From contig CBDCWI010000002.1 of the NCBI GenBank assembly GCA_965223325.1, positions 320,001 to 384,000 of the forward strand: a DNA stretch of 64,000 bases. The letters are read 5' to 3'. Position 1 is the first letter of the stretch; each line of letters begins with the position of its first letter. The notes under the pieces are model-generated. The model was not told where the DNA came from and did not search any database. It worked only from the letters and a program-made list of their open reading frames with translations. Origin of the DNA: Candidatus Multivoradales bacterium. GTDB taxonomy: Bacteria > Acidobacteriota > Thermoanaerobaculia > Multivoradales > Multivoraceae. The position numbers and the translations under genes are program-made. Shown here piece by piece: positions 45,494-56,219 of the stretch.

Positions 45494-46099
45494 TCAGTCC
45501 TGGCTACGGTTACGGTAGAGCTCGGGGTCGACGACCTCGGCCATCTTGCGGTAGGCCTCCGCGCGACCGACGAATTCCGCGATCCGCCGTGCCTCGTCCT
45601 CGGGGGAACCGAGGACCTCACGGTAGTGCACGTCGATCCACTCGAAGGCTGGATCGTTCTTGAGCAGATACCCCACCCGCCAGAGATGGTTCTCGTAGGC
45701 GTCGGTCATCTGCGCATCGGCGGCGTCGTCCTGCTCCTCGCGGTGATCGAGCATCTTCTGCTGTGAAGCCAGCACTTCGCGCAGGTCACGGCGCATGAAG
45801 ATGACCTTGTAGTTGTTGTCGCGCGGCAGGTCCTTGAGCAGAAACGAAATGACTTTGATCGCCTTGCCGCGCGAAGCCCGCAACCAGGACTTGTCTGCCA
45901 TGCCTTCGAGGTCCTTGACCCGCTCGTCCTCGAAGTAGCCCTTGGGGTTGTCGATATCGGCTTCACGCTCGTTATCGGTCACCACGCTGAGTCCGGCTGC
46001 ATCGAGCATCTTCATCGCCATGGATGTGCCCGAGCGCGGCAGCCCGGAGACCACAACCACCGGTGGCCCTTTGGTCAATCGTCGAATCAACTTACGCAT
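45494..46099 (-). CDS. Sulfotransferase family protein
   Basis: 5'-PSB loop VSGLPRSGTS, NPKGYFE, 3'-PB-like FMRRDLREVLASQ, HYREVLGSP. Confidence 0.85.
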   Translation of the reverse strand: MRKLIRRLTKGPPVVVVSGLPRSGTSMAMKMLDAAGLSVVTDNEREADIDNPKGYFEDERVKDLEGMADKSWLRASRGKAIKVISFLLKDLPRDNNYKVIFMRRDLREVLASQQKMLDHREEQDDAADAQMTDAYENHLWRVGYLLKNDPAFEWIDVHYREVLGSPEDEARRIAEFVGRAEAYRKMAEVVDPELYRNRSQD

Positions 46100-46431
46100 C
46101 AATCAGCTCACTGGAATCGGAGGTTAGCGGGAGCGTGCGCACCCTAGCAGGAGTCGCCGGCTTCCTGGGGCCTCCCGGGCACTCTCCGCGGTCGAGCGGC
46201 CCATCGGTTGCGACACCATCGGAGGGCACCGTATGCTCTTTCGCGAACCCGAGCCGGTTGTCTTCCGGCCGCCTGTTCACCGACTTCTGGCGGTCGCTGG
46301 CCCAGCTCCCGATGATCCAGCTTCGGCTGTGCACCGCCCGGGCGCTTTGCACCAACTCGCCGCGCGGTGAGGCCTGCCCGAAGCCCGCCCGAGCTTCCGA
46401 TTCACCTTCACCCCCTCCAGTAAACAGCGAT

Positions 46432-48666
46432 ATGAAAGCCAAGCCCCAGAGGTCCATCACCCGCCAGAGAGCCGCCGCCGGCGACGCCAGCACGATCAAC
46501 AAACGCGGTGTCACCACCGTGGTGTTCTTCGCCGCCCTGGGACTGGTTGCGTTGCCGGGCTTCGCCCACGCCTACATCGGTCCCGGCGCAGGCGTCGCGC
46601 TTCTGTCGTCGTTCGCGGTGCTCTTTGTCACCATCATCATCGCCCTGGCCGCTGTCCTGGTGTGGCCCTTCCGCACCCTCTACCGGATTCTGCGACGCAA
46701 GAAGCCGCCCAAACCACTGGTCAAGCGGCTGGTCATCGTTGGCTTCGACGGCCAGGACCCGCGCCTCACCGACCAGTACCTCGCCGAAGGCAAGCTGCCG
46801 AACTTCGAGCGCCTCGCCAGGCGGGGCGGCTACCGCAAGCTGCGCACGACCTTCCCGTCGTTGTCGCCCGTCGCCTGGTCGAGCTTCAGCACCGGAACCA
46901 ACCCCGGCAAGCACAACATCTTCGACTTTCTCGACCGCGACCTGCGCAGCTACCTGCCGACCCTCTCCTCCACTGCCATCGGCCGGGTCGAACGCTTCCT
47001 GAAGCTGGGCAAGTGGCGCATCCCGCTTCATAAGCCGGAGCTGCGCCTCCTACGCAAGTCGAAACCGTTCTGGTCGATCCTCGGCGAGCACAACATCTGG
47101 AGCACGGTGCTGCGCGTCCCGATTACCTTTCCGCCCGACAAGTTCTACGGTGCGCAGCTCGCCGCAATGTGCGTTCCAGATCTCCTCGGTACCCAGGGCA
47201 CCTTTCTCCTGTTCACGACCCGACCGGCAGAGGGAGAGTTCAAGGAGGGCGGCCTGCGGTTCGAGCTCCCAGACTCAGGTGGCAACCACTTCGAGACCCA
47301 GGTCGAGGGTCCAGAGAACACCTTCTTGCCACCCGACGAGGATGGCGACGAACCCAAACTCACCACGCCAATGACCATTCGCCTCGACCGCTCAGAAGGT
47401 CTCGCGCACATCGAAACCGGTGATGAGAGCCTGGTCCTGCGGCCGGGTGAGTTCTCGCCCTGGGTGACCTTGACGTTCAAAGCGGCGCCCGGAGTCAAGG
47501 TCCACGGCATCTGCCGCATGAAGGTCACCGAAATGCCCGGCCATGACGAGAGCGAGCACTTCTCGCTCTACCTGACACCGCTCAACATCTCGCCTGACAA
47601 GCCGGCCATGCCGATTTCCCATCCGTCGTACTACGCCACCTACCTGCAGAAGGTCGTCGGCGACTACTGCACTTTGGGGCTCGCCGAAGACACCTGGGCA
47701 CTCAACGAAGGGATCACCGACGACGGCACCTTCCTCGAGCAGACCTATGACATCGATCGCGAGCGTGAAGAGATGTTCATGGCCTCACTCGAGAAGCTCA
47801 AGAAGGGCGCCCTGGTGTGCGTCTTCGACGCCACCGACCGCATCCAGCACATGTTCTGGCGCTATCACGAGAAGGGTCACCCCGCTGCCGCCGGCATCGT
47901 CGACCCTGAGCACGGCGACGCGATCGAGAAGCTCTATCGCCACAACGACGAGCTCCTCGGCCGGGTGATGGAAAAGCTCGATGACGACGACCTGTTGATC
48001 GTGCTCTCAGACCACGGCTTCGACTCCTTCCGGCGGGGTGTCAATCTCAACCGCTGGCTGGTCGACCAAGGGCTCCTGGTGCTCAAAGAGGGCACCGACG
48101 GTTCGAGCGAGTGGCTGCGCGATATCGACTGGTCGAAGTCGAAGGCCTATGCCCTGGGCCTGTCAGGAATCTTCCTCAACCTCGCCGGCCGCGAAGAACA
48201 GGGCATCGTGCAGCCAGGCGAGGAGGCGCGCGCCGTCAAGCAAGAGATCATCGAGGGTCTCGCCGGCATGATGGACGAAGAACGTGGCGAGGTCGGCATC
48301 ATCGAAGCATTCGACACCGAGGTCATCTATTCGGGACCCTACCGCCGCAACGCTCCCGACCTGATCATCGGTTTCAACTCCGGCTACCGCACCTCATGGG
48401 ACTGCGCGACCGGCCAGTCTCATGGCCCGGTCTTCGAAGACAACACCAAGGCCTGGAGCGGCGACCACTGCATCGATCCGCGTTTGGTACCCGGAGTCCT
48501 GTTCTCGGACCGGCCCATCGAGAACGAAGATCCGTCGCTTCTCGACCTGGCCCCAACCGCGCTCCAACTGTTTGGTATCGACGCCCCGGCACACATGGAG
48601 GGCGAGGCGCTGTTCTCCGAAGCTGCAGTGAATCGAAAGACGACCCAAGAGCGCGACGCCGCCTGA
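46432..48666 (+). CDS. Membrane-anchored alkaline-phosphatase superfamily protein (type I phosphodiesterase/nucleotide pyrophosphatase-like)
   Basis: GFDG, TFPSLSPVAWSSFSTGTNPGKHNIFDF, DRIQH, LSDHGF, WSGDH, DLAPT; N-terminal signal plus TM; start uncertain. Confidence 0.88.
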   Translation: MKAKPQRSITRQRAAAGDASTINKRGVTTVVFFAALGLVALPGFAHAYIGPGAGVALLSSFAVLFVTIIIALAAVLVWPFRTLYRILRRKKPPKPLVKRLVIVGFDGQDPRLTDQYLAEGKLPNFERLARRGGYRKLRTTFPSLSPVAWSSFSTGTNPGKHNIFDFLDRDLRSYLPTLSSTAIGRVERFLKLGKWRIPLHKPELRLLRKSKPFWSILGEHNIWSTVLRVPITFPPDKFYGAQLAAMCVPDLLGTQGTFLLFTTRPAEGEFKEGGLRFELPDSGGNHFETQVEGPENTFLPPDEDGDEPKLTTPMTIRLDRSEGLAHIETGDESLVLRPGEFSPWVTLTFKAAPGVKVHGICRMKVTEMPGHDESEHFSLYLTPLNISPDKPAMPISHPSYYATYLQKVVGDYCTLGLAEDTWALNEGITDDGTFLEQTYDIDREREEMFMASLEKLKKGALVCVFDATDRIQHMFWRYHEKGHPAAAGIVDPEHGDAIEKLYRHNDELLGRVMEKLDDDDLLIVLSDHGFDSFRRGVNLNRWLVDQGLLVLKEGTDGSSEWLRDIDWSKSKAYALGLSGIFLNLAGREEQGIVQPGEEARAVKQEIIEGLAGMMDEERGEVGIIEAFDTEVIYSGPYRRNAPDLIIGFNSGYRTSWDCATGQSHGPVFEDNTKAWSGDHCIDPRLVPGVLFSDRPIENEDPSLLDLAPTALQLFGIDAPAHMEGEALFSEAAVNRKTTQERDAA

Positions 48667-48760: not shown

Positions 48761-48955
48761 ATGTTCGGTGGAAGCAAGATCAAACTCGACAAGGACCTCC
48801 TCGACAAGGTCAAGAAGTACGCAGACATCGCAGGCTACTCCTCGCCCGAGGAGTTCATCACCCATGCTCTCGAAAAAGAGCTCGCCAAGCTCGAAGACGC
48901 CGACTCCGAAGAAGAGATCCGCAAACGCCTGAAGGGCCTTGGCTACATTTCCTGA
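48761..48955 (+). CDS. 64-aa ribbon-helix-helix-like microprotein with C-terminal RLKGLGYI tail
   Basis: AAGGAG RBS; KIKLDKDLLDKVKKYA..AGYSSPEEFITHALE follows the RHH beta-alpha-alpha pattern; clean codon usage. Confidence 0.8.
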   Translation: MFGGSKIKLDKDLLDKVKKYADIAGYSSPEEFITHALEKELAKLEDADSEEEIRKRLKGLGYIS

Positions 48956-48993: not shown

Positions 48994-49821
48994 ATGAACG
49001 CCTTCTTCTCCCTGCTCGCAGGTCTGACCGACCTCCTGATGCGTCCCTTCGTCAACCTGCCGTTGATCGTGCCGGTGACGGTGATGGCAGCCATCGCCAC
49101 CGTCTTGTTCCTCCTGGTCTACCGGTGGACCTCGAACCAGGAGGGCCTGGTGCGGGTCAAGAACAAGCTGGCGGCATCGTTCTTCGAGATCAGGCTCTGG
49201 AACGACGACATCGGAGCCATCTTCCGCGCCCAACGCGACCTTTTGTGGAACAACCTCAAGTACATCGGCCTCAACCTGGTGCCGATTCTCTGGTTGACCA
49301 TTCCGTTCGCGCTCGCGATGGGGCAACTGCAGGGCTACTGGGGCTACGAGCCCTTCCTCCCAGGTGAAAGCCGCGTCGTCCGCGCCGAAGTGCTCGGCGA
49401 GATCGCCTCCGCCGGGCGACCCGATCTCGAGCTCGAACTGCCCGAGGGCATCACCTTGACCGCCCCACCGGTGTGGAGCAGAAAAGCTCACGAAATGGCG
49501 TGGCAGGTGCGCGCCGAGGCCCCCGGCGCCTACGAAATCGCCCTCCGCCTCGGCGATCAGACGACAAACAAAGCCGTCACCGTCGGCAAGGGAGCACTGC
49601 GCCGTTCACCGATTCGCGCCAACGGCAATTGGATCGATCGCATCCTCTACCCATCAGAACCGGCTCTCGATGAGGCCACCGGCCTCAAGCGCATCACCAT
49701 CGACTACAACGACGCCGAAGTCGACATGGGGTTCTGGTCGATCCACTGGCTGGTGCCGTTCCTGCTCCTCACCATCGTCTTCGCCTTTGCCATTCGCGAG
49801 CGCATGGGCGTGACGTTCTAA
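48994..49821 (+). CDS. Membrane protein, Oxa1-superfamily-like (DUF106/EMC3/TMCO1 pattern) with an inserted soluble domain
   Basis: Amphipathic N-terminus, TM1, helical hairpin (SNQEGLVRVKNKL...QRDLLWNNLKY), TM2 LVPILWLTIPF, beta-rich insert, terminal TM WLVPFLLLTIVFAF. Confidence 0.6.
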   Translation: MNAFFSLLAGLTDLLMRPFVNLPLIVPVTVMAAIATVLFLLVYRWTSNQEGLVRVKNKLAASFFEIRLWNDDIGAIFRAQRDLLWNNLKYIGLNLVPILWLTIPFALAMGQLQGYWGYEPFLPGESRVVRAEVLGEIASAGRPDLELELPEGITLTAPPVWSRKAHEMAWQVRAEAPGAYEIALRLGDQTTNKAVTVGKGALRRSPIRANGNWIDRILYPSEPALDEATGLKRITIDYNDAEVDMGFWSIHWLVPFLLLTIVFAFAIRERMGVTF

Positions 49822-49916
49822 CTGGAGACCCGGGGCAGCCTTGAAGGCTCCAAGCACCTGCTAGCGTGGCCAGCAACCAAGGAGGCTCTGCAACCGGTGT
49901 CGCAATCTCAAGGCTC

Positions 49917-50050
49917 GGCAAGTTTCGCGACGAGTGCCTCAACCAACACTGGTTCGTCGACCTGGCCGAAGTGCGAAGAGCAATCGAGACTTGGAGAGTC
50001 AGTCGACTACAACTGCGAGCGACCCCATGGCTCGCTGGGCGGCTTCGCCA
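49917..50050 (+). mobile_element. IS3-family transposase integrase-core remnant (frameshifted)
   Basis: GKFRDECLNQHWFVDLAEVRRAIETWRV, then after a 4-bp AGTC duplication (49997-50004) DYNCERPHGSLGG, the IS3 C-terminal signature. Confidence 0.85.
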
Positions 50051-50206
50051 GTGCGACGGTTCCAGGCTAATGCAAAAGAGCGCTTCGGTGTACCTTCTCG
50101 CCGTCCGGGCAAGTTTCCCGCTCCCGATCGTGGAGTCATTCTTTGAAACAGCGGAGCGCCGCCAACGAGGCATGACGAGTCGGTAGTTCACAGCGCCAAA
50201 CGCCCG

Positions 50207-50299: not shown

Positions 50300-50767
50300 C
50301 TAGCGCACGCAGGCACCGCCCTTGTAATGACCCAAGGGACAGGTCCACAGCTCGGGATTGACGGGCCGCCACTCCAGGTCGACAAAGGTGACGGTCGGCT
50401 CGGTTACCGCCGGCGACATGCCAGAAACCACCGCCAGGATCGCTGTCGAGGGCGCGTCAGACACCAGGCGCGTCACCGTGAGGGAGACCAGCGAAGTCCA
50501 TGCACAACCCGCGACCCCACAGCCACCGCCGCCGAGCGACAGGGACTCGTAGCGCACCTGGTAACGCTCGCCGGTCTTGTCGCGCAGGAACCGGACAACC
50601 TGCGGATGAGCCCGCACCGCCTCAACGGCCGGGTCTTCATCCTGCGCCGCTGCGGGTAGAACCAAGACCATCGCCAGAGCGGCCAGGAATACGCCAGCCA
50701 GGAAAAGTAGAACGAAGGACGTCGGCTGTTGGCCGTTGGTTGTCTCTTCTGTCGTCGAGAATGGCAT
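50300..50767 (-). CDS. Hypothetical secreted protein with four cysteines
   Basis: GGAGG RBS; signal peptide ending AAA-Q; CGVAGC and C-terminal C...C. Confidence 0.7.
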   Translation of the reverse strand: MPFSTTEETTNGQQPTSFVLLFLAGVFLAALAMVLVLPAAAQDEDPAVEAVRAHPQVVRFLRDKTGERYQVRYESLSLGGGGCGVAGCAWTSLVSLTVTRLVSDAPSTAILAVVSGMSPAVTEPTVTFVDLEWRPVNPELWTCPLGHYKGGACVR

Positions 50768-50781
50768 AGGACATCACCTCC

Positions 50782-52902
50782 CTATTCTTCGATGTAGCCA
50801 AGTCGTTTGAGTTCCTCGGTGGTCTGCGGATCGAGACTCCAAGCGTCGACAGGTTCTCGGCCATCGCCAGAGCTTTCGCCCAGTCCCAGCTGGCGGCGGG
50901 CCCTTTCGATCCCTTCCAGCACCGCCTGTCGCCTCTCCTGCAATTGCGCGACTGAACGGTCTCCATCGAGGCCGTCGAGAGCCAACGGTCGTTGATCGCC
51001 AGGGTCGGTGCTCCGATCGAAGACCGCCGACCGCGCGGTGTCGTTCGCTTGAATGAGTTTCTGACCTCGCCACACCATCGCACTGTGCCAATCGCCGCGC
51101 CGCGTGTGACTCATATAGATCGCCCGCTCGGGCCCTCCGGTGAAAAGAGAAGGCTCGACAAACCCTCGGACACCCGCCGGGACCTTGACGTGCGCCTCGG
51201 CGAGAAGACTGCGAAAGAGGCCCGCCGTCGAGCGCGGCGCGTCTTCGCTTGCGGCGCGGCGGCCGGGAGCCTTGAGGAGGAGCGGCACGCGAACTACCTC
51301 GTCGTAGAAGGTGTGCCCATGTTCGAAGCCGTCGTGCTCCCAGAACTCCTCACCGTGATCACCCACGACCGCAATGACGGTCTGCTCCCACCGCCTCGAG
51401 CGCCGAATCTGAGCGAACACCTCGCCAAGGGCCTGGTCGACGGCCCGCACCTCGGCGTCGTAGAGCGCTTCGATCGCCCGCTTCTCAAGGGCCGTGGGCG
51501 TGAACTGCCCGCTCAGAACTTCCTGCAGTTGCGAGAAGCGACCGCTCGCTAGACGCTCTGGGAGATCCTTCGGCAACCCGGCGGCGGGCGGTGCGTAGGG
51601 CAGATGCGGATCGAGCAGATGGAGCCACAAGAAGTACGGCCGACGCTCGGCACCGCTGGTCAACTGGTGCAGGAGATCTTCGGTTTCCGCTCCCAGCTCG
51701 GCGGTATTGCGATGGGTGGCAGCCGCCAGAACCGGCCAGGAGCGCGCCACTCCGTCGCGTGGTACCGCAACCGGGCGCAGCAGGCGCGCTCCGAGGGCGG
51801 AGCGCGGGCCGATGCGCGGAAACACCCGCCAGTGGTCGAAACCACGCCGCAACGTACCGAACTGGAGGTGGACTGAGGCTGCTACCGCTCCTGTTCGGTA
51901 GCCCGCGCCAGCCAACGTCTCGGCCAGGGTTGGAAGAGCGAGCGGAACCGGCTGGCGCATGTCGACGACCTCGTGGACGGCCGGCAGGAGCCCAGTGTGC
52001 AGACTGGCCAGAGTCGGGAGGGTCCAGGGAGCGACGGTCAGCGCTCGCTCGAAGCGCACCGCCTCAGAGCCCAGGGCCACCAGGTTCGGCATCAGCTCCT
52101 CAGTGAGTCGATCCGCCCGCAGGGTGTCGACAGTGATGAGAACCACATCGGGTCGTCCGTCGGCTTCTTCTGCGGCCGAAACAGAGGTCCCCGGCTTCTG
52201 TGCCCCGGCCCACGATCGTGCAACAACCACCACCAGAAACAAGAAGGCCACGACAACCACCGCGCGGGCAAGGCGCCGAGGCCAAGGGCTGCGGCGGATG
52301 AACCAGAACAGCAAGGCGCCGAGGGCAACGATCACCAGCCCATCGAGCCAGCGGCCCGGACCCGACATGTCGCGCCGCTCAACCAATGCGCCCATCCAGG
52401 GCCCGCCGAGGCGTAGGGCGACCCAGGTCAGGCCAAGAACGGCGACCGCCGAGACTCCCTCGAGCATGCGCCGGAAAAACTCGACGCGCTCGAGACCTGC
52501 CCGCCACAGGAGGGCCGCGACTGCCAGCGAAGTGACAACTGGCACAGCCACCTGCCAGGCTGCCGGGCCGCCGCCCGAACTGGTGGGAACCAGGGTGCTA
52601 CAAAGAGCCGCGACCGCCAGACCGATCAAGCCGCCCGCGGTCGCCAGCGCGACGGAGCGAGAAGCCGTGAGTGGCGAGCGCCCGGACAGTCTCACGAAAA
52701 GGGCGACGACCGCCAGTGAGGCGAGGGCCAGCACAACGCTGGTCGCGAGCGGCAGAATGAGGAGGTCGAAGGTCGTCGTTCGCACTCGCTCACGAACGAG
52801 TGCAATGACGAGGTCGAATGAACCGAACAACATGGCACCCGCCAGAACGGTTCGCAGCAACGGCCAGTTCATCCCGCCCGCGATGGTCTCGCGCACCTTC
52901 AT
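50782..52902 (-). CDS. Multi-TM sulfatase-like hydrolase/transferase with C-terminal LKRLGYI tail
   Basis: ~7 TM N-terminal domain; VVLITVDTLRADRL, APWTLPTLASLHTG, LDPHLPY, GDHGEEFWEH, HGH, VRVPLL; ATG 52902 overlaps the addA stop. Confidence 0.88.
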   Translation of the reverse strand: MKVRETIAGGMNWPLLRTVLAGAMLFGSFDLVIALVRERVRTTTFDLLILPLATSVVLALASLAVVALFVRLSGRSPLTASRSVALATAGGLIGLAVAALCSTLVPTSSGGGPAAWQVAVPVVTSLAVAALLWRAGLERVEFFRRMLEGVSAVAVLGLTWVALRLGGPWMGALVERRDMSGPGRWLDGLVIVALGALLFWFIRRSPWPRRLARAVVVVAFLFLVVVVARSWAGAQKPGTSVSAAEEADGRPDVVLITVDTLRADRLTEELMPNLVALGSEAVRFERALTVAPWTLPTLASLHTGLLPAVHEVVDMRQPVPLALPTLAETLAGAGYRTGAVAASVHLQFGTLRRGFDHWRVFPRIGPRSALGARLLRPVAVPRDGVARSWPVLAAATHRNTAELGAETEDLLHQLTSGAERRPYFLWLHLLDPHLPYAPPAAGLPKDLPERLASGRFSQLQEVLSGQFTPTALEKRAIEALYDAEVRAVDQALGEVFAQIRRSRRWEQTVIAVVGDHGEEFWEHDGFEHGHTFYDEVVRVPLLLKAPGRRAASEDAPRSTAGLFRSLLAEAHVKVPAGVRGFVEPSLFTGGPERAIYMSHTRRGDWHSAMVWRGQKLIQANDTARSAVFDRSTDPGDQRPLALDGLDGDRSVAQLQERRQAVLEGIERARRQLGLGESSGDGREPVDAWSLDPQTTEELKRLGYIEE

Positions 52903-55900
52903 TCGACGCGCACCTCGCTGCCAATCTCGAGGAAGAGCAGCCGGGCATCGACCGCTGCTGGTAGCAGGCCGAGAATCTGCGCCAGGGCATCGCGGTAGGT
53001 GGCAATCTGGTAGCGGTAGCGTTCGACGAGCTCCGGCACCCGGTTTGCGGGTACCCGGTCGCCCTTCCAGTCCCAGAGCACCGCCCCCGCCGGCTGCCCA
53101 CGCACGTGCTCGATGAAAACCCGATCGAAGCGACCGCTGAGGAGCTTCCCGTCCTGGACCAGGGCAAAGGCGCGCTCGCGCCACAGCTCCCCGCCTCTCG
53201 CTCCGCCCTTGCGTGGTGGCGCCAGGACCCGGAGAACCGTCGGATGAGAGAGCATCTGGCGGAACTCTCTGAGCCATCCTTCGAGGGACAGTCCTTCGAT
53301 CTCGGGGGCCTCGCGCCGGGCAATCGACATCAGCTGGCGATCGGAGGGTGCACTGTGGCGACCACGGCTCTTCTCTGGGTCGAGCCACTCGACCTCTGCC
53401 AACCAGGCGTGGAGGATCGACCCCCGCATCCGTTCGAGTTCGGAACCGCGCTCGAGCAGCACGGTCGCCGGCACGGTGCCGTCCTGGTGGGAACCCGCGG
53501 ACGGAGCAACCGTGACCAGACTCCTGGGGGGAGACTTCCGACGGGTTCGTTCACTGGCTGACGCTGTCTTCGAAGACGCTGGCTTAGACCGGCCGACCTG
53601 TTCGTCGTCCGGTCGCAGTCTCGAGTCTTCTGCCAACTCGTCTTGCGCCCGACTGAGGGAGCTACCCGCTAGCTTCTCCATCCACCGCGGGTCGCCGGCT
53701 CTAAACGGCACGCCGACGTTCTGGCGCGAGAGCGGCGTTCCTCTACCCAGAGCCTCGGCGATCCAGGCCGCTGCACCGCGGTCTCCGCCGCCTTCTTTTG
53801 CCAGCAGGTAGAGGCCATACCGGGCCCGGGTCATTCCGACGTAGAGCGCACTCAGCTCGTCCTGCCAGCCACGCCGCTGTTCCTGGAGCCGGGCAGCCTC
53901 GAGCCGGGGATCGAGACTGGCGATGCTCTTGTTTCGCGCTGGAAAGATCGCCGTCGGCGCGGCCGTCTCTTCTTTGCGCTCCACCCAGACGGTCGAGCTC
54001 ACACGTCGGGTCCAGTCGAGTTCGCACAACATCACCGCGTCGAACTCGAGGCCTTTCGATCGGTGGACGGTCATCACCCGTACACCAGACCGGGTCGGCT
54101 CTTCGACCAGGTGACGCTCGGCAGCAGCGACGAAGTCGATCGTTCGGCCCCGGTCATCCCGCTCAAAGGTCTCGGCCAGGTCGAGCAGCTGCGCGAGCCG
54201 ACGGCGCGAGCGCTCGCTGCTCACTCGCGCCAGCCAGGTTGCCAGACGCGAGACCATTCGCGGCAGGCCCTCCTCACCGATCCTTCGACGAAGCGCGGCC
54301 GACAACCGGTGGGGATCCCAGCTGGTGATCTCGAGTGGTTGTGCCAGGGGCGAATGGGCGAGATGAAAGAACGATGCGGTATCACCAGGATGATCGGCGA
54401 GTACCAGGGCCGACAAAACCAGAGCGACCGCGGGATCGTCGTCGATCGGGCTCCCGCCTTCGCCACTGGCGTCGATCCCGCCGCGGCGCAGGGCGTCGAG
54501 GACATGACCTGCGAGTCGATTGGTGCGGGTGAGAACGGCGATCGCCGGCTGGTAGCCAGGCGGCGCCGCGCCGAGCAGTTCCTCGATCCAGGCGCGCACT
54601 GCGGCGATATGGATGTTTGGCTCGTCGCTCGCCAGGTCGCCCGCCGACCCCTCGAACGAGTCTTCGTCAATCTCGGGCTCCGCGCTCGGCGACACTCGAA
54701 ACTCAACGTACCCGGGTTTCTCTCTATCGACGGCCCGGTGGGCTTCGAGACCATGCAACCAATCCGCAACCAGGTCGGCGTGTGGAGCTAGCGGCTTCCA
54801 CTGCGGGGCGGCGGCCAGTACCCGGTCGACGACCTCGAGAATCACTGGCGAGGAGCGATAGCTCACATCGAGGGTCTCGGGGGCGATCTCGCGTTTCGCC
54901 AGCTCGGCTTCGATGTCTCGAAAGAGGGCCGCGCAGCCACCACGCCAGCCATAGATCGCCTGCTTGGCGTCGCCGACGCAGAAGAAGCTGTGCGAGCCGT
55001 CACCGTGCGCCCAGATCTCCTCGGCGATCGGCTTGAGCACCCGCCACTGCTCGAGGCTGGTGTCTTGGAATTCATCGAGCAGGAGATGCTGGATGCGACC
55101 GTCGAGTCGATAGGCGATCTGCATGCGCACCGCTTCGTCGACCTCGCCAAGGCTTTCGAGCAGCCAACGGGAGAGGTCGCCGAACAGCGCCAGGCGCCGC
55201 CTGCGCCTGAGACTGTCGTACTGCTCGTCGAAGGCCCGGAGGAGCCCATAAAGCGCCATCCCGCGCCCGGCGAGCACTTCGAGCAGAGTGAAGCGCGCAT
55301 GTTCGAGCAGCGGTCGATAGGCCGCCACAACCACCGCGGGAAGCGGTTTGCGGTAGTACTGAAGATCGCCCTCGTAGACCTTCTTGGCCAGGCCATCCTT
55401 CAGGAACGACTCCCAGTCGCGCGCCTCGGCGGCTGCATAGTCTCTAGCGAGCGCCGTCTTGACGCGCTTCTCGAGCGGCTCCTCGATGAGGCAACGCTTC
55501 AGCTCGCGCAGGGCGTCCTCGAGGTTGACATCGGTCTGGGGCGGCGCCACTTCGAGACGGGTCCACGCTTCGGCGCTCCGGGCCTCGCGGTACAACTCGT
55601 AGAGGGCGTCGAGAACCCGGTCGAGAGCGCCAGCGACCGAGCGCTTCGCCTGCTCGCCGTGCAGGCGCTCGATGAGTCGCACCAACTCGTCGAGGTCGGA
55701 GCGCGCGCCGCGCTCGAGAACCCTCGAGAGGGCCTCGAAACGCAGCCGCTCGCTCTTCGGATCATCGGGGGTTCCGAGCTCGGGTCGCTCGGGCAAGCCC
55801 AACTCGTAGCGAAAACAGGTGACGAGCCGGTAGAAAAAGGCGTCGAGGGTCGAGATCTGAAGCCGGGGCAGATCGGCGACCAGGCGCCGCAGGAGCTCAC

Positions 55901-56219
55901 CACACGCTGCGCGGTCGACGCCGGCGACCCCGAGCTCATGCAACTCTTGCGACAGCTTCTCGGTTGCCGCCTCGTCGAGACAGGCGATCGCGAGGCGAGT
56001 GAGGACCCGCTCGAGGATCTCGCCGGCTGCCTGGCGAGTAAAGGTCACCGCCAGAATGGTCCGCGGGCTCGAGCCTAGAAACAGAAGGCGCAGGATCTCG
56101 AGCGTCAGGCGATAAGTCTTGCCGGTTCCGGCTGACGCTCGCACCAGGCGATGCGGCGGCACGGTAGGCAACCCGCCGCCGGGCCCAGTGCTGCCGTCGT
56201 CTAGCGGGACCAGGGTCAC
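52899..56219 (-). CDS. addA: AddA-like UvrD superfamily helicase-nuclease
   Basis: ASAGTGKT, TFTRQAAGE, DEFQDTS, VGDAKQAIYGWRGG, MTVHRSKGLEFD, LYVGMTRAR, C-terminal RecB nuclease GRFDRV...WDWK. Confidence 0.88.
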   Translation of the reverse strand: MTLVPLDDGSTGPGGGLPTVPPHRLVRASAGTGKTYRLTLEILRLLFLGSSPRTILAVTFTRQAAGEILERVLTRLAIACLDEAATEKLSQELHELGVAGVDRAACGELLRRLVADLPRLQISTLDAFFYRLVTCFRYELGLPERPELGTPDDPKSERLRFEALSRVLERGARSDLDELVRLIERLHGEQAKRSVAGALDRVLDALYELYREARSAEAWTRLEVAPPQTDVNLEDALRELKRCLIEEPLEKRVKTALARDYAAAEARDWESFLKDGLAKKVYEGDLQYYRKPLPAVVVAAYRPLLEHARFTLLEVLAGRGMALYGLLRAFDEQYDSLRRRRRLALFGDLSRWLLESLGEVDEAVRMQIAYRLDGRIQHLLLDEFQDTSLEQWRVLKPIAEEIWAHGDGSHSFFCVGDAKQAIYGWRGGCAALFRDIEAELAKREIAPETLDVSYRSSPVILEVVDRVLAAAPQWKPLAPHADLVADWLHGLEAHRAVDREKPGYVEFRVSPSAEPEIDEDSFEGSAGDLASDEPNIHIAAVRAWIEELLGAAPPGYQPAIAVLTRTNRLAGHVLDALRRGGIDASGEGGSPIDDDPAVALVLSALVLADHPGDTASFFHLAHSPLAQPLEITSWDPHRLSAALRRRIGEEGLPRMVSRLATWLARVSSERSRRRLAQLLDLAETFERDDRGRTIDFVAAAERHLVEEPTRSGVRVMTVHRSKGLEFDAVMLCELDWTRRVSSTVWVERKEETAAPTAIFPARNKSIASLDPRLEAARLQEQRRGWQDELSALYVGMTRARYGLYLLAKEGGGDRGAAAWIAEALGRGTPLSRQNVGVPFRAGDPRWMEKLAGSSLSRAQDELAEDSRLRPDDEQVGRSKPASSKTASASERTRRKSPPRSLVTVAPSAGSHQDGTVPATVLLERGSELERMRGSILHAWLAEVEWLDPEKSRGRHSAPSDRQLMSIARREAPEIEGLSLEGWLREFRQMLSHPTVLRVLAPPRKGGARGGELWRERAFALVQDGKLLSGRFDRVFIEHVRGQPAGAVLWDWKGDRVPANRVPELVERYRYQIATYRDALAQILGLLPAAVDARLLFLEIGSEVRVE

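Follow-up and report, generated by a model that had tools for sequence, protein, structure and literature searches.

A very probable bacterial member of the DUF106/EMC3 branch of the Oxa1 superfamily, with a predicted Ig-like ectodomain, encoded beside alkaline-phosphatase-superfamily enzymes

The substrates of Oxa1-family proteins have few transmembrane (TM) segments and small translocated regions, and the archaeal DUF106 protein Ylp1 binds ribosome-nascent chains in vitro (PMC5868721). The three-TM members hold a partner via H5's distal face, the outer face of the last helix (10.1101/2020.12.20.422553). The DUF106 branch of the superfamily is treated as archaeal and eukaryotic in PMC5868721, PMC8662606 and PMC7618853, and, in one study, non-archaeal PF01956 sequences were set aside before analysis (10.1101/2020.12.20.422553). 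The literature that we searched (DUF106, COG1422/PF01956, Oxa1 superfamily, Ylp1) yielded no paper on a bacterial DUF106 clade. Here, we describe a membrane protein, which we name DUF106L, encoded in a 64,000-nucleotide stretch of the genome of Candidatus Multivoradales bacterium (assembly GCA_965223325.1, contig CBDCWI010000002.1, positions 320,001 to 384,000 of the forward strand; hereafter, the window). That some members of the family are labeled DUF106 by automatic annotation of the Joint Genome Institute (JGI) is already known; what is new is a bacterial variant of the DUF106 branch that combines a predicted immunoglobulin (Ig)-like ectodomain with a fixed gene context, in a conserved uncharacterized module.

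DUF106L is very probably a three-TM protein of the Oxa1 superfamily, from its DUF106/Ylp1-EMC3-TMCO1 branch, in line with the initial annotation, which was made from the DNA letters and the translated open reading frames (ORFs). The predicted gene is an exact ATG-to-stop frame, present in a single copy in its genome, and is clearly real and conserved: a phmmer search of 1.84 billion representatives returned 2033 matches at E<=1e-3, of which 1280 also reach E<=1e-10 and 207 reach E<=1e-30. A word-indexed search identified 35 relatives with 34–46% identity, 8 of which are named ‘uncharacterized membrane protein (DUF106 family)’ by JGI, and one carries a precomputed PF01956 assignment. In a language-model atlas, related clusters are labeled Aminicenantota, Acidobacteriota and Planctomycetota, with PF01956 assigned to 17% of the members of one cluster.

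When the profile built from the alignment of the 35 relatives (A1) was compared with all PDB sequences, there was one significant match, to the archaeal protein MJ0480 (5c8j; E 7.3e-9). The alignment pairs positions 5-121 of the profile with positions 6-126 of the chain (117 positions), encompassing the N-terminal helix, TM1, the helical hairpin and TM2 in the same order, and a second, non-significant stretch pairs the last TM of the profile with the last TM of MJ0480. One of the relatives, P0010, alone retrieved 5c8j at E 1.8e-6, and searches with the A1 profile and with P0010 reached only MJ0480 in the PDB. P0010 also scored 29.7 bits on PF01956 (EMC3_TMCO1), against a Pfam cut-off of 27.1, as the one relative above the cut-off, and 11 of the 35 relatives matched PF01956 at E<=1. 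The bacterial YidC family, PF02096, was matched neither by the window protein nor, at E<=1, by any of the 35 relatives, and DUF106L has three TMs rather than five; it is therefore outside the bacterial YidC family. A profile search of a set of 5.8 billion proteins retrieved close family members only and gave no archaeal link.

The predicted structure points in the same direction. An AF2 model built on alignment A1 (mean pLDDT 92.7, pTM 0.82) was used in a wide structural search of 48161 representative chains, independent of Foldseek. Chain 8 of entry 7TUT (7tut_8) ranked first of the 48161, with Z 11.4 and a root-mean-square deviation (rmsd) of 3.3 A over 135 aligned residues of 177, and stood 2.9 Z above the next row. 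The superposition covers model residues 20..275, with all three TMs, so that the proposed fold does superpose on the Oxa1 core. The entry is a multipass translocon containing the YidC homologue TMCO1 (PMC13434473), and we believe that chain 8 is TMCO1, judging from its length and topology alone. Bacillus halodurans YidC (3wo7_A; Z 7.6, rmsd 6.9 A, 148 residues) was among the very few other rows that span TM1 into TM3.

Two types of results weigh against this assignment. On the sequence side, the PF01956 comparison suggested in the initial annotation succeeded for some of the relatives but not for the window protein itself, for which the Pfam scan returned only a sub-threshold HisKA_7TM match and the NCBIfam scan nothing. 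On the structure side, the Z of 7tut_8 is below the caution line of the tool for helical folds (~13), and many coiled coils reach Z 7-8 in the same search. Moreover, the membrane core of the model was detected only in the wide search, whereas a Foldseek comparison of the complete model with PDB entries matched Ig-like domains only, with no matches at E<=0.001; re-examination of the Foldseek matches with VIA confirmed that residues 118-201 alone were covered.

The features of DUF106L and of the adjacent genes are listed in Table 1. The layout proposed in the initial annotation, namely, an amphipathic helix, TM1, a hairpin, TM2, a soluble insert and a terminal TM, is reproduced throughout by the AF2 model, in which the second hairpin helix runs on into TM2 as a single helix (residues 73-116).

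Table 1. Coordinates of the DUF106L gene, the elements of its product and the neighboring genes in the window
Feature	Coordinates	Strand	Basis
Sulfotransferase, PF13469/PF00685, divergent	45494..46102	-	Pfam
AlkP-A, alkaline-phosphatase-superfamily enzyme, PF01663	46432..48666	+	Pfam; start codon uncertain, open frame back to 46024
64-aa ribbon-helix-helix (RHH) protein, tail ...RLxGLGYIS, preceded by AAGGAG Shine-Dalgarno	48761..48955	+	Sequence, alignment, AF2 model
DUF106L, very probable DUF106/Ylp1-like Oxa1-superfamily membrane protein, 275 aa	48994..49821	+	ATG-to-stop ORF, homologues, profile match to MJ0480, AF2 model
N-terminal amphipathic helix, residues 2-19, predicted periplasmic side	48997..49050	+	AF2 helix; mean K+R 1.5
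TM1, residues 25-46, with terminal conserved polar run K/R-x-T-S-N-Q	49066..49131	+	AF2 and alignment
Helical hairpin, residues 47-92, predicted cytoplasmic, tip ...FEIRLWNDD...	49132..49269	+	AF2 helices 49-68 and 73 onward; mean K+R 7.5
TM2, residues 93-116, with P97...P104 and Q111	49270..49341	+	AF2 and alignment
Predicted Ig-like beta-sandwich insert and linker, residues 117-250, predicted periplasmic	49342..49743	+	AF2 strands 126-251; Ig-like structural matches
TM3, residues 251-268, then 7-residue tail, predicted cytoplasmic	49744..49797	+	AF2 helix 253-267; alignment

Across the 35 relatives, T46 at the end of TM1 is invariant, and each of S47, N48 and Q49 is retained in 90% or more. 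The TM2 motif noticed in the initial annotation (P.L...IP) is confirmed as P97-I-L-W-L-T-I-P104, with P97 invariant and P104 kept in at least 90%; in TM3, W252, A264 and F265 are invariant. The conserved polar residues T46, S47, N48, Q49, N87 and Y90 map to the cytoplasmic TM ends in the alignment. The hairpin is the best conserved part of the protein, with column identities of 0.81 and 0.72 for its two helices and 0.89 for its tip, followed by TM3 (0.76), TM2 (0.67), TM1 (0.59) and the Ig-like part (0.54). The topology is predicted to be N-out/C-in, as elsewhere in the Oxa1 superfamily, with a cytoplasmic hairpin and a periplasmic insert, because the hairpin is rich in positively charged residues (mean K+R 7.5, compared with 1.5 at the N-terminus) and the insert is net acidic (mean D+E 19.7 vs K+R 13.1), in agreement with the positive-inside rule. 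In structure, the insert comes closest to Ig-like domains from invasin-type adhesins and from filamin (Z ~6, rmsd ~2 A over ~75 residues; Foldseek E ~1e-3), so that, as modeled, it is a generic Ig-like sandwich of ~130 residues within the TM2-TM3 connection, which is new relative to the known family.

We next consider the genomic context of DUF106L in 80 related loci taken from public genomes, most of them labeled Acidobacteriota, Thermoanaerobaculia or Vicinamibacteria, and some assigned by their depositors to Gemmatimonadota, Gammaproteobacteria, Myxococcota or Ca. Eiseniibacteriota. A gene for a 64-65-aa RHH-tail protein is located immediately upstream of DUF106L in all 80 loci. An AlkP-A orthologue (56-71% identity) is found further upstream in 70 of these, the remaining 10 having no more than 2.9 kb of upstream sequence. 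In 8 of the 70 loci, AlkP-A immediately precedes the small gene, the same arrangement as in the window, whereas the other AlkP-A loci have a gap of ~2 kb that is occupied by a paralogue, AlkP-B; gap-filling frames were present in 11 of the 13 loci examined. In the L013 locus, AlkP-B is a PF01663 protein with a lipoprotein-type signal. The nearest AlkP-B-like gene of the Multivoradales genome is unlinked, on the other contig (C1:852451-854532; L101:6443-8485, minus strand), and its product, with 38-43% identity to AlkP-B of other loci, carries an RRNFLRL twin-arginine motif and an LASC lipobox. This gene adjoins a gene for an FG-GAP repeat protein, with a tail-bearing sulfatase 3 kb off. The divergent sulfotransferase is present upstream in 55 of the 80 loci, that is, frequently but not universally.

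The distribution of these genes was traced in 301 sampled genomes of the phylum; because relatedness makes such genomes non-independent, the counts are descriptive, and each tally includes one genome marked as unpublished (G049), without which every count is one lower. DUF106L is present in 88 of the 301 genomes, always in one copy, and the small RHH-tail gene in 85. Both genes occur together in 84 genomes, DUF106L only in 4 and the small gene only in one, which is 75% complete; the four genomes with DUF106L only all come from one family, whose matches to the small gene score close to the threshold. Similarly, an AlkP-A-type match (E<=1e-180) was found in 84 of the 88 DUF106L-positive genomes, compared with 3 of the 213 DUF106L-negative ones, these three being 75-83% complete. 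It is quite likely, therefore, that DUF106L acts as the membrane subunit in a co-inherited module, together with AlkP-A, the 64-aa RHH-tail protein and, often, a periplasmic AlkP-B. The Multivoradales genome also encodes a canonical YidC (PF02096, 195 bits; C2:3469576-3470148), 3.1 Mb away, and the best reading is that DUF106L acts beside the ordinary YidC rather than replacing it. The dedication to one operon claimed in the initial annotation is thus borne out, in that the same neighbors co-occur with DUF106L while canonical YidC is encoded elsewhere. No further conserved membrane-protein gene, such as an EMC6-, GET2- or Elp1-like partner, was found in the module; a genome-wide search for one was not made.

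The N-terminus of AlkP-A has a recurrent design, comprising a basic n-region, an h-region, AxA, Y[IV]GPGAG, a hydrophobic helix ending in WPFR and an Arg/Lys cluster, with the catalytic GFDGQD only several residues further on. This design is found in 65 of 66 readable N-termini, L020 being without the anchor motif, and AlkP-A is the sole protein in the Multivoradales genome with a Y[IV]GPGAG-type anchor. In the window, the anchor reads YIGPGAG...WPFR, with the Y encoded at 46573 and the predicted cleavage at AHA|YIGPGAG, so that AlkP-A is predicted to carry a cleavable signal peptide immediately followed by an N-out anchor and to keep its catalytic domain on the cytoplasmic side. The initial annotation had an N-out single-TM enzyme encoded upstream of DUF106L: the N-out single-TM architecture would hold only once the predicted signal peptide is removed, and the gene directly upstream encodes the 64-aa RHH protein. 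Across 64 loci, the mature anchor equals the beginning of the catalytic domain in conservation (0.78 for both; 0.38 for the signal peptide), which is unusual for a passive anchor. A comparison of AlkP-A with the PDB identified no relative at E<=1e-3.

The small RHH-tail protein is even more strictly paired with DUF106L. Its alignment (72 sequences) has 79% mean column identity, and the C-terminal ...L-x-G-L-G-Y-I-S is invariant or nearly so. The AF2 model (pLDDT 89.7) shows an extended N-terminus and helices 11-24, 29-45 and 50-60; all its best fold matches are ribbon-helix-helix proteins, led by NikR (2hza_A), for which 39 residues superpose at an rmsd of 0.9 A (probability 0.99, E 0.24), and including PutA, Arc, CopG and MazE. 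The E-values are weak because the domain is small, and weak NikR and PSK_trans_fac matches were also obtained by sequence. As modeled, the protein has an RHH (Arc/MetJ/CopG) fold with an added third helix. A profile match to the C-terminus of the yeast-type ribosomal protein uL13 (4v91_O, ...QLAALGY) is marginal (E 0.017) and is taken as chance. The prediction of a complex between DUF106L and the RHH-tail protein, both supplied as alignments, scored 0.00 with the verdict ‘no answer’ and is counted neither way.

The C-terminal tail is shared with other proteins. The motif L-x(1,2)-L-G-Y-[ILVM], following an acidic run and located no more than 12 residues from the end, occurs in 20 of the 65447 open frames of the Multivoradales genome, compared with 1-4 frames for the same motif in any other 10-residue bin. 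Two of these frames, 48761-48955 and 50782-53388 (minus strand), are in the window, and 18 are elsewhere (L083-L100). Sixteen of the 18, together with the sulfatase-like gene of the window, encode Sulfatase/Phosphodiest proteins of the alkaline phosphatase superfamily, 17 in all; AlkP-A and AlkP-B are without the tail. Judging from the sequences, the LGY tail looks like a shared interaction tag.

On this background, our preferred reading, to which we give about an even chance, is that DUF106L is a dedicated insertase and lasting docking subunit for the AlkP-A anchor; the homology, the predicted architecture and the co-inheritance are shown, and each mechanistic step is inferred. The AlkP-A signal peptide, abutting the second hydrophobic helix, would form a hairpin with a periplasmic turn of ~7 residues, and this hairpin would enter the TM1/TM2/TM3 groove of DUF106L, in the manner in which Oxa1-type insertases take helices with short translocated parts. 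Signal peptidase would then cleave after AxA, leaving Tyr-1 at the outer face of the membrane beside the Ig-like ectodomain. The mature anchor would remain docked on the conserved TM3 face of DUF106L, the face that holds partners in EMC3, GET1 and archaeal YidC, and the conserved cytoplasmic hairpin would bind either the RHH-tail protein or the catalytic domain of AlkP-A. The greater conservation of the hairpin tip and TM3 compared with TM1 is in line with docking surfaces. Several considerations weigh against this scenario. The genome retains YidC, which should be able to deal with such a hairpin, making the need for a private insertase less than obvious. The RHH-tail protein, not AlkP-A, is the strictest partner of DUF106L, and a pure insertase model leaves this pairing unexplained, just as it does not account for the Ig-like ectodomain. 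Finally, the C-terminal tail of DUF106L comprises 7 residues, without the basic ribosome-binding tail of the YidC/TMCO1 style.

In some alternative readings, DUF106L does not insert anything. The main one, which we regard as unlikely, if still worth serious attention, is that DUF106L is a permanent scaffold or conduit, bridging the cytoplasmic AlkP-A and, via the Ig-like domain, the periplasmic AlkP-B, with a lipid-exposed groove that passes an intermediate across the membrane in a scramblase-like manner; this intermediate would be lipid-linked or amphipathic and might be sulfated or phosphorylated. The position of AlkP-B between AlkP-A and the small gene in most loci would fit this arrangement, as would the lipoprotein-type signal in L013 and the twin-arginine motif and lipobox of the unlinked Multivoradales copy, the sulfotransferase neighbors in 55 of 80 loci, the CysQ-like gene in L013, the high conservation of the soluble faces of DUF106L and the lipid scrambling by insertases through the insertion groove (10.1101/2023.09.01.555937). 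However, AlkP-B has no linkage to the module in the Multivoradales genome and is missing between AlkP-A and the small gene in 8 of 80 loci, whereas AlkP-A, the small gene and DUF106L stay together. The RHH fold suggests a different role, namely, that DUF106L is a membrane sensor or anchor that sequesters an RHH transcription factor on its hairpin until a periplasmic signal perceived by the Ig-like domain releases it. The resemblance of the small protein to NikR, PutA, Arc, CopG and MazE at rmsd ~1 A over ~39 residues, its strict pairing with DUF106L and the predicted DUF106L domains on both sides of the membrane are all compatible with this idea, which we nevertheless consider improbable: no operator-like word was enriched in 55 divergent sulfotransferase/AlkP-A intergenic regions (the most widespread 8-mer is present in 8 of them, compared with up to 10 after shuffling), a finding that weakens, without excluding, a conserved autoregulator; 79% column identity across phyla is unusual in a local repressor; and the presence of the LGY tail on 17 alkaline-phosphatase-superfamily proteins suggests a protein-protein tag over DNA control.

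The remaining alternatives detach DUF106L either from its neighbors or from the Oxa1 superfamily altogether. In one, DUF106L would be a second insertase of general use, a YidC paralogue of the archaeal type that serves many clients, and the neighboring genes would be incidental. Such an activity is known for the family (PMC5868721); the patchy distribution (88 of 301 genomes), the fixed gene order and an inheritance that follows AlkP-A and the small gene almost perfectly make this quite improbable. The likeness to Oxa1 could also be convergent or due to chance, DUF106L being an unrelated three-TM coiled-coil protein. The lack of a direct PF01956 match for the window protein, the restriction of the Foldseek matches to the Ig-like domain and the many coiled coils at Z 7-8 could be read in this way, but we consider it extremely unlikely and largely refuted by the MJ0480 profile match over 117 positions with the same element order, the superposition on 7tut_8, the top structural match, across all three TMs and the score of one relative, P0010, above Pfam's own cut-off. 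A more elaborate scheme, which is speculative and decidedly unlikely, would make the module a bacterial counterpart of GET/EMC-type systems, with DUF106L as the receptor-insertase, the RHH-tail protein as a cytosolic adaptor, the acidic-LxxLGY[ILV] tail as a hitherto undescribed tag recruiting enzymes to the hub and the sulfotransferase maybe controlling this tag via its tyrosine, descended perhaps from archaeal DUF106 forms with an Ig-like ectodomain.

Several further genes are located around the module. In the window, an insertion sequence (IS)-type integrase core fragment (rve_3, E 5.4e-7; 49866-50186, plus strand) begins 45 nt past the DUF106L stop codon and is the remnant of a transposase, at the module's end. 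Removal of AlkP-B through this fragment was considered and rejected because AlkP-A is immediately followed by the small gene in 8 other loci as well. The space from the IS fragment to the sulfatase gene holds a 155-aa ORF (50300-50767, minus strand) that matches nothing in Pfam and whose product has a single hydrophobic segment, at the N-terminal end. The sulfatase-family protein itself (50782-53388, minus strand) has a long polytopic-looking N-terminal region and the C-terminus ...EELKRLGYIEE; its true start must be well inside the ORF because the frame overlaps a UvrD-like helicase gene (52899-56219). In L013, a complete relative, a gene of the inositol-monophosphatase/CysQ type and one for a PPK2 polyphosphate kinase border the module (L013:188-979 and L013:6824-8413), the former fitting a context of sulfation dependent on 3'-phosphoadenosine 5'-phosphosulfate (PAPS).

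Together, these observations delineate a large bacterial clade, with 1280 representative clusters at E<=1e-10 and depositors' labels from several phyla, that bears on the history of the Oxa1 superfamily, through either ancient inheritance or inter-domain transfer. DUF106L appears to serve one well-defined client and, if this is true, would provide a simple bacterial system for studying how helices are recognized and held by minimal Oxa1 proteins. The conserved set, with its phosphatase-like enzymes and tiny tailed protein, points to a dedicated membrane machine, a widespread uncharacterized envelope module linked to sulfation enzymes.

Compared with its closest described relative, the archaeal DUF106 ‘YidC-like protein’ MJ0480/Ylp1 (5c8j, PF01956), DUF106L is homologous in sequence from the N-terminal helix through TM1 and the hairpin to TM2, and it shares the order of elements, the three-TM core and the N-out/C-in topology, which is predicted for DUF106L. 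It differs in its bacterial host, in the ~130-residue insert, predicted to be Ig-like, between TM2 and TM3, in a far more conserved hairpin and in a fixed operon with AlkP enzymes and the RHH-tail protein, in place of a housekeeping context. With the Oxa1 members of the endoplasmic reticulum, TMCO1, EMC3 and GET1, it has in common the three-TM core with a cytosolic coiled coil, and its best structural match is the 7TUT chain that we believe, from length and topology, to be TMCO1. By analogy with these proteins, DUF106L probably works inside a hetero-oligomer, and its conserved coiled coil, if it docks a cytosolic factor, would be GET1-like. Unlike them, its module is without an EMC6/GET2/C20orf24-like three-TM partner gene, and the protein lacks a long C-terminal tail while carrying an inserted ectodomain.

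Bacterial YidC (PF02096; B. halodurans YidC2, 3wo7) belongs to the same superfamily, with TM1-TM3 alignable to those of DUF106L, and Gram-negative YidC also has a periplasmic beta domain. The ectodomain of DUF106L, in contrast, is located at TM2-TM3, where YidC has an extra TM hairpin (nomenclature from 10.1101/2020.12.20.422553). The predicted AlkP-A precursor resembles M13 procoat in combining a signal peptide and a TM into a hairpin whose translocated loop is very short. Procoat-type proteins are YidC substrates, and Cox18, a single-client Oxa1 paralogue, is a precedent for a dedicated member. Compared with procoat and Cox18, the proposed client AlkP-A has a catalytic domain of ~650 residues, predicted to be cytoplasmic, and the DUF106L gene has become evolutionarily fused to the operon of this putative client.

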